Shown here piece by piece: positions 36,001 to 42,000 of a stretch of 42,006 bases of DNA; position 1 is the first letter of the stretch; each line of letters starts with the position of its first letter. Origin of the DNA: a candidate division WOR-3 bacterium (GTDB lineage Bacteria > Hydrothermota > Hydrothermia > JBDRYB01); NCBI GenBank assembly GCA_049969615.1, contig JBMFOM010000004.1, forward strand, positions 1 through 42,006, in the 5' to 3' direction. The position numbers are program-made.

Positions 36001-39000
36001 TCCAGCGCGCCGGTTGGGCATGAGTCCAAGCAGAACAGGCAGAATATGCAGAGCGCCGAGTCAAAGACGAGGCGATCATCCTCGCCCATGCAAAGCGCTC
36101 CGGAGGGGCAGACTCCTGAGCAGGAGCCACAGTCAACGCAGAGTTCATCGCGTCTGGCTATCTTGTCGGAGAGTGGATAAACCGCAACACCCCGTTCCTT
36201 CAACCATACTATTGCGCTTTCGGGATCAGGCCCTATGTCCACTACCATCTCGCCGTCCTCGGTCTGGGTGACCCTTGCCCGCAGGATGTTAACCTCGGCG
36301 CCATGTTCCTTGATGAGCGCGGTGATTATGGGCTTGTCCACTATGTCCTTCGGAAAATGCAGGAATAGTTTCATCTCATACCTCCCATGGGAGTGAACGC
36401 CCTTCAATCGGCAGGGGCCTTACATATGGCGATAACTTGAAACGCCCCTCTTTTACCCATGATTTCAGTGTTTCGGCGACCTGCCTTGATATTCTCATGC
36501 TCGTTCTTGAACCTGTCCTCGCCCGCTTCCCCATTATCTCCACCCATCCGGTTCTCAACTCCCGATAGCTCAGCTCTTTGACCACTGGCCTCTGCCTCCT
36601 AGCCACACCATAGTCCAGGATAACTGTCTTTAGCTGGCTGTCAGGCCTTGAACATGTCTCGGCCAGGTCCTCGTCCAATATGGGAATAGCAAGGCCTATT
36701 CCGAGGAAAAGGCTCACACCGTATCCCGGCACATATGCAGCTCGTAGGAAGTCCGGGTTCATCTCCTTCAAATTTCCTATCAGGGCAAGTGTCGCACCGG
36801 GGGTTATTGGTAGCCCGGCCGAGTCGCGTTTTGGATTAGCATTGAACTGGGTCCCCTCCCACGCGACATGCCCTATTGCCCCTCCAAGGAACACCTTTGT
36901 CCCGATTCCAACCGTCCTGAGGTTTGGGTCCTTCAAGAGGGGAGAAAGCTCCCCGGATGTGGCATACATGACATTCCCATATCCCGGCAGGAGCTTTCCC
37001 ATGTATGTGTAGAGGATACGGGATGAGGAGTTTGTCGCGGCGGCATAGTTTTGATAAAGGTTTCTGGGATTGAAGAGGAACGCCTGATTCAGGTTCTTCA
37101 GGGTAATCTCTCCCTCCACTGATTTCCGCGGATAACAATCAGACCTTGCGCCTTCTGCTCGGAACCTCACGGACTCGCCGCGTATCAAAGCCTCTATAAC
37201 ATGCGCGCCACCATATCTCTGGTCAGTCAAAGAGACCTGCGTCGCGCCGAGATACAAGTCAACAGCGGCTATGCCTCCGTATGCCTCTACATCATTCAGA
37301 AATGCTCTCTGGAAGCGGGACGGAGGGTCTGTATGGCCGGTGTTCAGAAATAGCCCTGAGGAGCACATCATCCCGAATGTCCCAGTTGTTATGACATCTA
37401 CCTTTTCCGCTACTGACTTCACTCCCTCTGTCTCCCGGAGCCTCGCGGCCTCCTCCGCGGTGAGGACTACCACCTCACCCCGGGCTATCTTCTCGTTTAT
37501 CTCTTCAAGACTTCTATGCATCTTGTCTCCTTTGGGTTAAATGCCGGGCCAATGGCTGGTCGGAATGATATATGAGACGGTGGGGGTTTGATCCGGAGTT
37601 GACGAAGGGATCAGGCCTTTGCCCGTTGAATGGGCAGACTTCCCCTAGCCGGGGATTGGCTAGCCTGACACATGTCATCCTTCGTCCTCTTCATGGCCCA
37701 AAAGTATAATGACTGGGTCAATGGGGGTTCAAGTTGATATAACAAATTTGACGGCCTCCAGTGAGACAACCAAGTGATACACGGTCACATCAAAGTCTAT
37801 CCAAGCGTTGTCCTCGCCGCCCATCTCGCTTATCCATTGTGAGAACATGTTCGCTGGGCCGGTTGAGCCGTTGAACATCAGGCGCTCGGTCATGTGCGCC
37901 ATACCTCCTTAGCAGTCATTCTCGTTGGCCGACCCAACCATATACTACATCTGGATAGCCGTGATACCGGCCGCCGTATCCTCCACGACCAGAACCCTCA
38001 TCCCGTTTTCCATAGCTGTGTCCCTCACCGGTACATGTGGTAAGAGGAGGTTGACGCAGGACAGAAAAAGGAAGACCAAACTCATTGGAGGATTCCCCTA
38101 TGGCGGATGCTATTGGGGCTCAGTATCAAAGTGGATATTCGGGCCTGAACGCATCCTTATAGTGCTTTATTCCCTCTGGGGTCACGGATACGGCGTCAAA
38201 CCTGACCTGGACGCCATCCAGGTTCATCTGTGTTATGAAGCGCTCCGCGGTCAAAGCTATGCGCTTGCGTTTTCTCTCGTCAACGGACTCAAGCGGTTCG
38301 GCCGCCACGGAAGCACTGCTTTTTACTTCCACGAAAACCAGAATGTCGCTGTCCCAAGCAATTATATCGGCCTCCCCACCCCTGATGGTGAAGTTCCTGG
38401 CTATTATAACATAACCTAATGACCTGAGAAACTCAGCAGCTTCCCGTTCAGCGCGCCTTCCGATTTCTACAGTCCCTATATTAATCCTCTCCTTCCTTAT
38501 GCTCAGTGGCTTCCGGTATCTTAGGCTCGGCTGGCTCGGTGGTCATCTCTTCTGCCGAAGGCTCGGGTCCTGGCGCGGCTGGCTTGAGGGCATTGAGCTC
38601 CTCGGCAGAAAGCCTTCTATCCTTGAGCTTAGCGTGTTTGCCTATCCTGCCCCTGAGGTATCCCAGATTTGCTCGCCTCACCTTCGCCCTCTTGACTATC
38701 TCTATTCTCTCCACAGAGGGCGAGGCCAGGGGGAATATCCTCTCAACGCCTATGCCGGCCGAGATCTTCCTGACGATTATGCTTTTCCCTATGCCTTTGC
38801 CCCTTTCCGCTATTACAACGCCTTCATAGGCCTGGAGCCGGACCTTTTCTTCTGGCTTCTTAGTTTTTGGGTTCACCCTTACCTCTTTTACCTTAACATA
38901 AACCCTTACGGTATCTCCGGGCCTCACTTTTGGGAGGTCGGACCGGGCAAAAGAGGACTCAATGGCCCTTATCAGATCTTCCACAGTTCTTCTCCTCTTT

Positions 39001-42000
39001 CAACGATTCTCGCAAAATCTCCATATCGTCAGACCCCGTGTTCCTTCTCGCCAGGAGGTCTGGACGCAGGCGCAAAGTATAAAGCAAGGCCTGGCGCTTA
39101 CGCCACTTTTCTATCCTGGCATGATCGCCTGACAGAAGAACCGCGGGCACCCCAAGACCTAGGTATTCCCTGGGTTTTGTGTATGACGGATGGCCAAGCA
39201 TGTTCTCTTCAAAGGAATCATCCCTCGCGGAATCCTGGTCTCCCAGTGCTCCAGGCAGGAGCCTGGCTACAGCATCCAGCAATATGATCCCCGGCCCCTC
39301 TCCTCCTGAGACAATCAAGTTTCCCACCGAAAACCCTTCGTCAGCCCAGCGCATAACCCTCTCGTCAATGTCCTTATAGCGGCCGCATACTATTACCAGG
39401 TGAGGCTGGGCCGCGAGCTCCTTTATCCATTCCTGACAGAGAAGTCTGCCCCTAGCGCTCGCCACGAGAACCATTCCCCCCTCGTCCGAGGTCGCGTCGG
39501 TTATTGCCCTTATCAAAGGTTCTGGTCTCAGCACCATGCCCGGCCCACCGCCAAAAGGGTAGTCGTCCGTGTCCTTGGGGGTTTTGGCGTAATGCTTTGG
39601 GTTCAGGAACCTAACCTGAAGGCTTCCCGCCTCGGATGCGGCCCTAGGCGGTCCGAATTTCAGCCATTGGCTTATAAGCTCGGGGAACAGGGTTATGAAG
39701 GTTATTTTCAATGGAGAAATTATAGCCCACTTCCTGTGCAGGATCAATTATTTGTGTATCTGGTGAGGCCGAACATAAGCCTCTATGTTTTTAGGGAAAT
39801 CAGAGCTCTTAGAACCTCTTGAGTTTCAAAATCCCCTTGTTTCTGTCTATCTCGCTCACGAACTCTCCTGTCAGCGGAATGGAGAGCCTGTCCAGCTCCA
39901 GGATGAAATAAGAAGGGGTTTGGGTCAGGTCTTCAACCTTTCCAAGGAACTCGCCACCAGGGCCCAACACGCTCATGCCAACAAGCTCAAAGGCATATAT
40001 CTCCCCCTCCGCGGTCGCGGGGAGGTCTTCTGCCCTAGCCAAAAGGTGCAGTCCGGCAATCTCCCTCGCCTTTTCGGGGCTTTCAATTCCGAAAAACTTC
40101 ACCACTAACGTATCCTTTCCCTTGTGCCTCAGATAAGCCATTTTCAGCTCAGTAGTGTGACCATCCCTTGTCTGGACGAAAAAACGGGATATTGCAGAAA
40201 GCCCATCTACCTCCAGATATGGATGCAGGTTAAGCTCCCCCTTGAGCCCAGTGGCCTTCCCTATTCTACCAACAGAAACCAGGTCCTTACTACCCCGGCC
40301 CGCGGACTTGCCGGAGGGCTTCATGGTTCCTTGCTGGACAACCACAGAGGGTTGCCCCTACTCTATGATCTCCAGCTGTGCCCTGCGCCCCTTCTTCATG
40401 GCAGCCGCGCCAACTATCGTCCTTATGGCCCTGGCGGTGCGCCCCTCTTTTCCTATGATTTTTCCCAGGTCGCCTTCGCCAACTCTCAGCTCGTATATGA
40501 CGCTCTTTTCTCCAGCCAGCTCCCGGACATCAACCTTGTCAGGGTGATCCACGAGAGCCTTCGCGATATACTCTATGAGCTCCTTCAGTTCAGCCATGTT
40601 TCACCTCTCTGGTTCTTGCGAGATTAACTATACTCTTTGCTCTGGGTGTTATCTGCGCTCCCTTGTCCAGCAATTCCTGGACTCGTGCGGTGTCCACCTT
40701 GAACTCGTCTTTTCTCAAGGGGTCATAGTAGCCGAGAATCTCAAGGACATAGCTCCCCACAGTGGCCCGACTGTCCACCGCGACTATCCTGTAGAAGGGT
40801 CTCCCCCTCTTTCCTTTTCTCTCAAGTCTTATCTTTAACATCTTACCACCTGAAGTGTGCGAAGACCCTATTGGCCTCGGCCATCTTGTGCGCGTTTTCC
40901 TTTACCCTTACAGCAGTTCCTGTGTTCCTTGAAGCATCAATGAGCTCGTTGGCAAGCCGTTCAGACATGGTTCTTTCCGGTCTTTCCCTCGCCGCATTGA
41001 GTATCCACTTCATAGCGAGGAATTGTTGGCGCTTTGGCCTGACCTCAACCGGCACCTGATATGTCGCGCCACCGACCCTCCTGGGCCTAACCTCAATCGT
41101 TGGTTTCACATTTTCCAGCGCCCTAAGAAAAACCTCTATACCCTGCTCGCCGGTCTTCTTCTCCACCGTGTCCATGGCCTCGTAGAAGATCCTTTGCGCG
41201 AGCGTACGCTGGCCGTCCCACATAATGTAGTTGATGAACTTGGAGACAATCGGGGACCCATATCTTGGGTCAGGGGGCACGTTTCTAACCGGGGCTCTTT
41301 TTCTACGCATCCTGCCTCACTTCTTTGGTTTCTTGGTCCCGTATTTTGACCTACTCTTTGACCTGCCATCAACGCCTGCCGAGTCGTATCTACCCCTTAT
41401 GATGTGATATTTCACACCTGGGAGGTCCTTCACCCTGCCGCCCCTGACCATGACCACCGAGTGTTCCTGCAGGTTGTGGCCTTCGCCGGGGATGTAGGCG
41501 ATGACCTCCTTTCCATTGGTAAGCCGTACCTTCGCCACCTTCCGCAAAGCGGAGTTGGGTTTCTTCGGTGTGGTCGCGTAGACCCTGATACAGACCCCTT
41601 TTTTCTGGGGATTGGCGGCCAGCGCAGGCGCCTTTGACTTCTTTCTCTTCGGCGTCCTACCGAACCTCACCAGCTGGTTTATCGTTGGCATAAAACTTCC
41701 CTTCTTGCTAGGAAGCAAATTATAAACGAGCCGGCAGGGAAGGATCAAGTCCTGGTTTTGGCTGCTGGTTTTTCCAGCCCGCAGATTTTTCCTAAGCCAG
41801 GTTCAACCCGCCGTCTATTTTTGGGACAGGTATGGAACCGAAAGTTTCCGAAGGAAAGACAAGGAAAGATCCGCCCCTATAGGCCCCCATATTGAAGGGA
41901 GACCCCTGTATATCACTTTACCCGGCCTCTATAATTTCTTCCCCTAAGAAAGCACATAGAAATATGTGGTCGGAGAACCGGGTGAGCCTTTGGCTGAGAC

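Follow-up and report, generated by a model that had tools for sequence, protein, structure and literature searches.

Signal recognition particle loss in the class Hydrothermia and in further lineages of the candidate division WOR-3

The class Hydrothermia of the candidate division WOR-3 lacks the signal recognition particle (SRP) system: ffh, ftsY and the gene of a large SRP RNA were deleted in the ancestor of the class and, probably independently, in another, 22-genome clade of the same phylum. The absence, which the initial annotation had proposed for the class as a whole, is confirmed and extends further than first claimed. The phylum set comprised 272 genomes, namely 64 of the class, 22 of the second clade and 186 others. 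Neither Ffh nor FtsY was detected with PF00448 (E ≤ 1e-12) in any of the 64 class genomes, and the Ffh M domain (PF02978) exceeded its cut-off in none of them; the best weak class match to PF00448 (E 2.8e-7) was a PEP-CTERM/ExeA-type ATPase. Both GTPases and the M domain were likewise absent from all 22 genomes of the second clade. In the rest of the phylum, most classes of which had been described as keeping Ffh, Ffh and/or FtsY were found in 182 of 186 genomes and the M domain in 163; both GTPases were missing from the other four. The genome that contains the window (the whole analysed stretch of 42,006 nucleotides, contig JBMFOM010000004.1 of assembly GCA_049969615.1) yielded a best PF00448 match of E 0.007 with all 32 candidates scored, and the weak matches at ranks 1, 5, 6 and 7 of 11 were an adenylate kinase, an ABC ATPase, a ParA-type ATPase and a thymidylate kinase. 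Profiles built from WOR-3 sequences (two Ffh and 20 FtsY, run with --max) together with tblastn gave nothing better than E 0.014 in this genome.

The same genome contained no SRP RNA detectable with RF00169 (150 of 209 candidates scored) or RF01854 (58 of 58), and RF01854 found none in two class genomes in which every candidate was scored. A model trained on the phylum, with a scoring limit of 48 candidates in each genome, recovered SRP RNA in 15 of 16 controls, but in none of 42 class and none of 18 second-clade genomes. SRP-positive relatives within WOR-3 carry a large Alu-type SRP RNA, so the RNA that was lost is the large Alu-bearing type and not 4.5S RNA; the earlier statement that 4.5S RNA had been lost holds for the disappearance of an SRP RNA and fails for its type.

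The lost genes have recognisable native sites, upstream of dnaX for the RNA, after smc for ftsY and after rpe for ffh, and these sites are assembled yet empty, which argues against assembly gaps. In SRP-positive genomes the SRP RNA gene lies immediately upstream of dnaX. It was found there in none of 29 dnaX loci of SRP-less genomes, including all 18 class loci, and in nine of 11 second-clade loci tRNA-Ala(CGC) is followed directly by dnaX. In G259, smc is followed by tsaE without ftsY. Two genomes outside the large SRP-less clades show comparable scars. G107 has the order rpe-ffh-pcrB, whereas in G108 rpe and pcrB overlap by 4 bases. A gene for an NMT1-like protein and dnaX also share 4 bases in G108, although in relatives the SRP RNA lies between these two genes; G108 is a further single-genome loss. 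G084, with tRNA-Ala(CGC)-dnaX in place of the tRNA-Ala(CGC)-RNA-dnaX of G083, is probably another. Two further candidates were set aside as assembly gaps: G118, which keeps SRP RNA and lacks rpe, and G226, which is 75% complete and lacks dnaX. This is despite the fact that smc of G118 is not followed by ftsY, as it is in 11 members of its genus.

An artefactual absence, through assembly gaps, divergence of the SRP genes beyond detection or their location on an unbinned replicon, is extremely improbable. All genomes searched are drafts (none of the 64 in the class is a single contig, the lowest contig numbers being three and four), the SRP RNA searches scored part of the candidates, neither GTPase was found in four of the 186 remaining genomes, and two of these four, G118 and G226, do resemble gaps. 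However, three separately located genes are missing from 86 of 86 genomes, among them genomes that are 99–100% complete, and their native sites are present but empty. Divergence is countered by the detection of FlhF with the same model at E 1e-40, since a diverged SRP GTPase paralogue would therefore be expected to show.

The locus that had drawn attention to the loss (Table 1) is less informative. The initial annotation described the operon rpsP-khpA-rimM-trmD-rplS as headed by rpsL-rpsG instead of ffh. This is correct for the genome itself, where the rpsG stop and the rpsP start lie a single base apart, leaving no room for ffh, but the site does not mark the place of ffh loss: rpsL-rpsG precedes rpsP in two of 21 class rpsP loci, both from one genus, and gene order here is therefore not diagnostic. 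In this genus rpsL has become detached from fusA; fusA-tuf-rpsJ lies on another contig (C44) and rpsG does not precede fusA, whereas G057 retains rpoC-rpsL-rpsG-fusA-tuf. Nor does the order ffh-rpsP hold in WOR-3: it was confirmed in Escherichia coli but occurred at none of 15 ffh loci and none of 19 rpsP loci of the SRP-positive WOR-3 genomes examined. The scar of ffh in the class is probably the junction rpe-rpsP, seen in seven of the 21 class loci.

Table 1. Genes of the rpsL to rplS cluster in the window, named with NCBIfam models. The rplS product carries a low-complexity C-terminal extension.
Gene	Product	Position	Strand	Supporting match
rpsL	uS12	41317..41691	-	TIGR00981, E 2.8e-65
rpsG	uS7	40843..41310	-	TIGR01029, E 1e-64
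rpsP	bS16	40590..40841	-	TIGR00002
khpA	KH-domain RNA-binding protein	40358..40597	-	NF001748, E 5.6e-30, slightly below cut-off
rimM		39809..40345	-	TIGR02273, E 8.8e-29
trmD		38959..39711	-	NF000648 and TIGR00088, both above cut-off
rplS	bL19	38481..38984	-	TIGR01024, E 7.4e-38, residues 3-123 of 167

Phylogenetic analyses point to three to four separate losses within the phylum as the likely number, because the trees of RpoB/RpoC and SecA pair the class with an SRP-positive class. The RpoB, RpoC, L10 and L12 dataset placed Hydrothermia as sister to the SRP-positive f19-f32 clade (SH-aLRT 100) and rejected a grouping of the class with the second clade (p-AU 1.35e-5), and the SecA tree had the same shape. 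Ten ribosomal proteins returned this topology at a support of only 87 and did not reject a joint SRP-less clade (p-AU 0.33), so that the independence of the losses is supported by two of three marker sets. A single loss before the two large SRP-less clades parted, whether these are sisters or SRP returned to the sister class by transfer, would fit this last result, the few ribosomal-protein columns common to both clades and, if the second clade is the class UBA3073, two 16S sequences of that class that lie near Hydrothermia (PMC12542636, in excerpt). It is nevertheless very unlikely in view of the RpoB/RpoC/L10/L12 and SecA results. A regain would have had to return three genes to three ancestral sites, including smc-ftsY and an RNA-dnaX arrangement shared with basal lineages, and the Ffh and FtsY trees broadly track the families. 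G108 and G084, moreover, are placed among SRP-positive lineages regardless of how the two large clades are related. The suspicion of several losses, voiced at the outset, is borne out by the second clade, G108 and probably G084.

Apart from SRP, the targeting machinery is single-copy and ordinary. SecY, SecE, SecG, SecA, SecD, SecF, YajC, YidC and trigger factor are retained in the genome or class, in agreement with the first description of SecYEG, SecA, SecDF and YidC; SecY, SecE, SecD/F and YajC were identified by sequence, motif or BLAST instead of a family model. SecA was present in 30 of 30 and YidC in 32 of 34 class genomes searched, SecG in two of two, and SecY and SecE in the genome itself. 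The demand for membrane insertion has not disappeared either: a crude hydropathy census found at least three membrane segments in 181 of 1765 proteins, close to the approximately 192 of 1968 reported before. As previously noted, no replacement for SRP emerged from the genes and loci compared, YidC being single with a short tail, SecA single and Get3 missing.

The mechanism that appears most likely, with about an even chance of being right, is diffusional docking on SecYEG/YidC with help from SecA in thin and slowly growing cells. No dedicated targeting factor would be needed to bring nascent inner-membrane proteins to the membrane; ribosomes would diffuse to it while translating and dock on SecYEG(-SecDF-YajC)-YidC, and ribosome-bound SecA would catch hydrophobic segments. 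Thin cells and slow translation would keep the docking search brief relative to chain growth, and SRP would be dispensable in the phylum and lost whenever this kinetic margin was wide enough. By a rough estimate, first membrane contact is about nine-fold faster at a cell radius of 0.15 than of 0.45 µm. The one isolate with a reported cell width and growth rate, sy37, is a rod 0.3 µm wide with a doubling time of 10 h (PMC12285271, in excerpt) and belongs to the class (PMC12542636, in excerpt); its closed chromosome of 2.39 Mb (PMC12285271, in excerpt) lies outside the searched set. The SRP-positive sisters may be equally thin and slow. For comparison, the translocon search in E. coli takes about 750 ms (PMC9499511, in excerpt).

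The part given to SecA in this mechanism has precedents. Its C-terminal tail binds ribosomes (PMC6620043, in excerpt), and SecA alone targets RodZ cotranslationally (PMC5674894, in excerpt). Alternatively, SecA might have been specifically remodelled into an SRP substitute by replacing the zinc-binding SEC-C motif with a basic, ribosome-holding tail, which we regard as unlikely. SEC-C is missing from 23 of 28 class and three of 13 second-clade sequences as opposed to two of 28 SRP-positive ones, many of the class sequences without it end Lys/Arg-rich, and alternative basic tails have been suggested to preserve ribosome binding (PMC6620043, in excerpt). However, SEC-C is kept by five of the 28 class sequences, which account for both earliest-branching class families (5/5), by 10 of 13 second-clade sequences and by G084 and G108, so that the tail change postdates the loss of SRP and was not required for it. 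Approximately three events of SEC-C loss in SRP-less lineages compare with two in SRP-positive ones, and the tail of the SecA from the genome itself has a net charge of only +3 over 25 residues. The class SecA N-terminus resembles that of SRP-positive relatives, and apparent SecA duplications were split matches.

That an unrecognised factor, be it a new adaptor on the ribosome or membrane or a route that targets mRNA, took over from SRP is quite unlikely. In its favour, about one-tenth of the proteome remains polytopic, and the sec cluster of Leptospira has an orphan gene that its describers linked to secretion (PMC4758666). Yet, in a comparison of 2973 proteins from approximately 2.6 Mb of sequence surrounding selected genes, no gene was shared by the two SRP-less clades while missing from the SRP-positive loci, gene-order neighbours aside, and one invention is unlikely given three or four independent losses. 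The known candidates also fail. Full-length Get3/ArsA was absent from five of five genomes, with short P-loop matches only. Within the SRP-less groups, FlhF occurs in six of the 22 genomes of the second clade but is missing from all 64 of the class. The class has no second YidC (two partial matches in one genome lie on different contigs), and its YidC tail, counted from the last-helix motif onwards, spans 22–27 residues in 15 sequences versus 21–48 in 17 SRP-positive ones.

Complete SRP loss in free-living bacteria has been described for Leptospira, Dehalococcoides and apparently SAR86 (PMC4758666), and the kind of event is therefore already known. Leptospira, for which narrow cells were proposed as the reason (PMC4758666), resembles WOR-3 in being free-living and in having lost Ffh, FtsY and SRP RNA while keeping Sec. 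WOR-3 differs in its extent, with 64 species-level genomes of the class, the 22-genome clade and single lineages, and in having SRP-positive sisters, readable deletion scars and the large Alu-type RNA as the lost form; no orphan gene was seen in the WOR-3 sec clusters examined. Deletion of ffh in E. coli is viable with translation-initiation suppressors (IF2, IF3, uS3), slower translation compensating for the missing SRP; SecA rises about two-fold, which was judged not to be a major factor (PMC7844537, in excerpt). These strains also target membrane proteins without SRP, but they are products of the laboratory, are severely impaired in growth and retain FtsY (PMC7844537, in excerpt), whereas the WOR-3 losses are natural and ancient and include receptor and RNA. 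The SecA-RodZ route is likewise an SRP-independent cotranslational path to SecYEG whose parts are kept in WOR-3; it serves one substrate in an SRP-positive cell (PMC5674894, in excerpt), while in WOR-3 all polytopic proteins would need to be served. A further precedent is ribosome tethering by YidC-family proteins. YidC2 of Streptococcus mutans tethers ribosomes by its tail. This protein and mitochondrial Oxa1/Mba1 share with WOR-3 a YidC-family insertase acting without SRP (PMC7844537, PMC8321541, both in excerpt), but the class has neither a second YidC nor a long basic tail.

SRP is still called conserved in all living organisms (PMC7844537, in excerpt), and earlier natural losses are scattered remarks in one genome paper. 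As the initial annotation had stated, no report on SRP in WOR-3 was found in the literature searched, subscription papers aside, and neither PMC12285271 nor PMC12542636 has 'SRP' or 'signal recognition' in its main text. WOR-3 combines several losses in one phylum with SRP-positive sisters, deletion scars and an isolate from the largest SRP-less class, so that both the kinetic-bypass and the SecA proposals lend themselves to comparative and biochemical tests; G107/G108, G083/G084 and the class with its sister class are matched pairs for study. Ffh and FtsY are common universal marker genes, a use that would misjudge SRP-less WOR-3 genomes. The most far-reaching reading, which must be called unlikely, is that SRP is generally dispensable in WOR-3 and, starting from an ancestor with the large Alu-type particle, underwent three to four clean deletions because all inner-membrane proteins can be inserted cotranslationally by a factor-free or SecA-based route, which, most boldly, would use an undescribed adaptor or mRNA-localisation signal; if the latter were true, matched SRP-positive and SRP-less sisters would expose such a route.

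Sequence comparison gave the docking mechanism no direct support. Diagnostic residues shared by SRP-less genomes were not found in uL23, uL29, uL22, uL16, uL14, uL5 and uL18 or in the ribosome-contacting loops of SecY, and six families of orthologues gave no signal of a hydrophobicity shift. Scattered columns in SecY, uL2, uS3, uS5, uS8, uL6, uL15 and SecA passed the filter in a test of many columns with three to seven second-clade sequences, and G084 and G108 mostly hold the SRP-positive state at these. SecY helices 1 and 4 were more hydrophobic in both SRP-less clades (uncorrected p 0.001–0.03) and helices 2 and 7 followed the opposite direction, in a comparison of 6, 3 and 8 sequences that are not independent by kinship.

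The initial annotation held that the class Hydrothermia, a name adopted from it for the families here coded f1–f12, has lost Ffh, FtsY, and the SRP RNA. This was confirmed: none of the 64 class genomes has an SRP54-family match at E ≤ 1e-12 or an M domain over its cut-off, and almost certainly the class genuinely lacks a signal recognition particle (SRP); the accompanying interpretation was partly supported. In the source genome of the window (98% complete, 203 contigs) the best SRP54-family match had an E-value of only 0.007, and searches with WOR-3 Ffh and FtsY profiles and tblastn reached 0.014 at best. 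Four of the weak SRP54-family matches were checked and represent adenylate kinase, ParA-type, thymidylate kinase, and ABC ATPases.

Across the phylum, SRP54-family matches at E ≤ 1e-12 were obtained from 188 of 272 genomes and from 0/64 class genomes. Six of the 188 had one match each, sited between flhA and flhG, and the three of these that were tested all passed the FlhF cut-off. Since all six belong to families f37–f43 (22 genomes), whose matches are thus of the FlhF type only, this second clade likewise lacks Ffh and FtsY. Outside both groups 182/186 genomes were positive, and the M domain exceeded its cut-off in 163 of these 186 genomes, 0/64 class genomes, and 0/22 second-clade genomes, a count that leaves out two sub-cut-off matches (E about 0.002). 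The six second-clade genomes retain flhA-flhF-flhG (loci L035–L040), with FlhF as their only SRP-family GTPase. An extra FtsY copy on contig G123:C49 (L005) clusters with f33/f36 and not with its own genus, and is probably a contamination.

A phylum-trained SRP RNA model (R1) was built from the RF00169 matches of five SRP-positive genomes. It detected the RNA in 15/16 further SRP-positive controls, in 0/42 class genomes, and in 0/18 second-clade genomes, with up to 48 candidates scored per genome. When all candidates were scored against RF01854, no match was found in the window's source genome, the class genome G057, G260, or G108, and the same search did detect G206. By Rfam type, 11 loci of relatives carried the large bacterial (8), archaeal (2; same clan), or small (1) RNA. 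As the large type prevails among the relatives, the lost RNA was Alu-bearing and about 265 bases long. This large RNA (RF01854) occurs in most SRP-positive WOR-3 lineages (L122–L126, L156–L160, L304, L306), the small type in f13.

The SRP genes were deleted, the deletion scars are readable, and the translocon was retained. SRP-positive genomes carry the gene for the SRP RNA immediately upstream of dnaX; R1 found no match at 29/29 SRP-less dnaX loci, and in the window's source genome dnaX is abutted by its upstream gene. The SRP-positive G083 has the order tRNA-Ala(CGC), SRP RNA, dnaX, and in its SRP-less sister G084 the tRNA lies about 125 bases ahead of dnaX; the same tRNA precedes dnaX in 9/11 second-clade loci. 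In the sister class (f19–f32), rpe is followed by ffh in 7/7 loci. In its SRP-less member G108 (93% complete) two gene pairs overlap by four bases each: rpe and pcrB, which flank ffh in the sister G107 (rpe-ffh-pcrB), and an NMT1-like gene and dnaX, which in relatives are separated by the SRP RNA. Most SRP-positive loci have smc followed by ftsY, and the only SMC hinge match in the second clade comes from a genome that carries tsaE after smc, in the place of ftsY. The hinge model, which is weak on WOR-3 SMC, matched 0/42 class genomes, 1/18 second-clade genomes, and 11/16 SRP-positive controls; smc and ftsY may have been lost together as a single operon.

All seven operon genes in the window agree with their earlier description, with one base between the rpsG stop and the rpsP start, and the sole Rfam match across the window is a tRNA. 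The proposal that ffh had its place in the rpsL-rpsG-rpsP operon did not hold, as this arrangement was found in only 2/21 class loci, both from the window's genus. The source genome has fusA-tuf-rpsJ on a different contig with no rpsG ahead, and G057 retains rpoC-rpsL-rpsG-fusA-tuf. Because rpe directly precedes rpsP in 7/21 class loci, spread over five families, and Escherichia coli has ffh-rpsP, it is reasonable to infer rpe-ffh-rpsP as the ancestral order, though it was seen whole in none of the WOR-3 genomes examined. According to script gene calls, the rpsP-khpA-trmD operon lacks rimM in many loci of the sister class and the second clade (L307–L336, L377–L396) and in G024, although the window has it.

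Three SRP losses are well supported. In trees of RpoB (67 rows) and RpoB+RpoC+L10+L12 (46 rows, five named distant outgroups, LG+G4 quick search) the class was sister to the SRP-positive f19–f32 (SH-aLRT 100) and the second clade was separate (99); a joint SRP-less clade was rejected with the four-protein dataset (p-AU 1.35e-5). The SecA tree (71 rows) had the same topology, as did ten ribosomal proteins (38 rows) at 87, with the joint clade not rejected (p-AU 0.33). Wherever included, G108 fell within f19–f32 and G084 next to G083; Ffh and FtsY trees were broadly in line with the families. A fourth loss, in G084 (90% complete, 410 contigs), is probable. G118 and G226, which were rejected as further losses, seem to have assembly gaps. 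At the smc locus of G118 (L200, contig C54) a convergent gene directly follows smc and ftsY is missing, with the SRP RNA present and smc-ftsY found in 11 genus mates; this may reflect relocation plus an assembly gap, or an ongoing loss. In the f42 locus L103 (G263:C18), rpoC does not come after rpoB.

The class resembles all Leptospira, Dehalococcoides, and apparently SAR86, for which PMC4758666 reports loss of all three components, and the WOR-3 case therefore belongs to a known, rare kind. Passages of PMC12826062, PMC7203096, PMC8321541, PMC2905702, and PMC9099147 yielded no additional bacterial cases, and no report of SRP loss in WOR-3 was found in the main texts of openly accessible papers. 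New here are the scale, the repetition inside one phylum, the deletion scars, and the fact that sister pairs and a culture are available.

As to mechanism, there are about even odds for diffusion-limited docking, in which translating ribosomes would reach the membrane by diffusion and dock on SecYEG/YidC, with SecA assisting. Its support comes from published work: ffh deletion in E. coli is rescued by slower initiation (PMC7844537), cotranslational targeting of an inner-membrane protein by SecA is possible (PMC5674894), translating ribosomes diffuse at 0.03–0.1 µm2/s with a search of about 750 ms (PMC9499511), and the isolate of the class has a width of 0.3 µm and a doubling time of 10 h (PMC12285271). 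At D = 0.04 µm2/s, mean first membrane contact takes 0.07 s for a radius of 0.15 µm vs. 0.63 s for 0.45 µm.

Among potential replacements, no full-length Get3/ArsA was found in the five genomes searched, uL23, uL29, and the SecY cytoplasmic loops showed no convincing change common to the SRP-less groups, and clustering of 2973 proteins, drawn from extracted loci only, revealed no candidate that the two SRP-less clades share. A hydrophobicity comparison limited to six orthologue families gave no signal, and one of SecY helices pointed in opposite directions for different helices. Trigger factor and SecG have been retained. YidC is present in 77/80 genomes, where it is single-copy, and its tail is short in class members; SecA is single-copy in 79/80. 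The SEC-C zinc motif is missing from 23/28 class, 3/13 second-clade, and 2/28 SRP-positive SecA sequences; as the earliest class families retain it, its loss came after that of the SRP.

Coordinates of individual features in the window and in other WOR-3 genomes
Feature	Location	Strand	Remark
rpsL...rplS operon	window, 38481..41691		seven genes
ORF downstream of rplS	window, 38126-38470	minus	presumably resembles YraN-type nucleases
Only SMC-like locus found in the window's source genome	G000:C128:317-4139		taken from its sequence to be a Mre11/SbcD-like nuclease and Rad50/SbcC-like coiled-coil ATPase pair
Split SecA, first part	G150:C1:738958-740730		far from second part in one-contig genome
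Split SecA, second part	G150:C1:2183425-2184390
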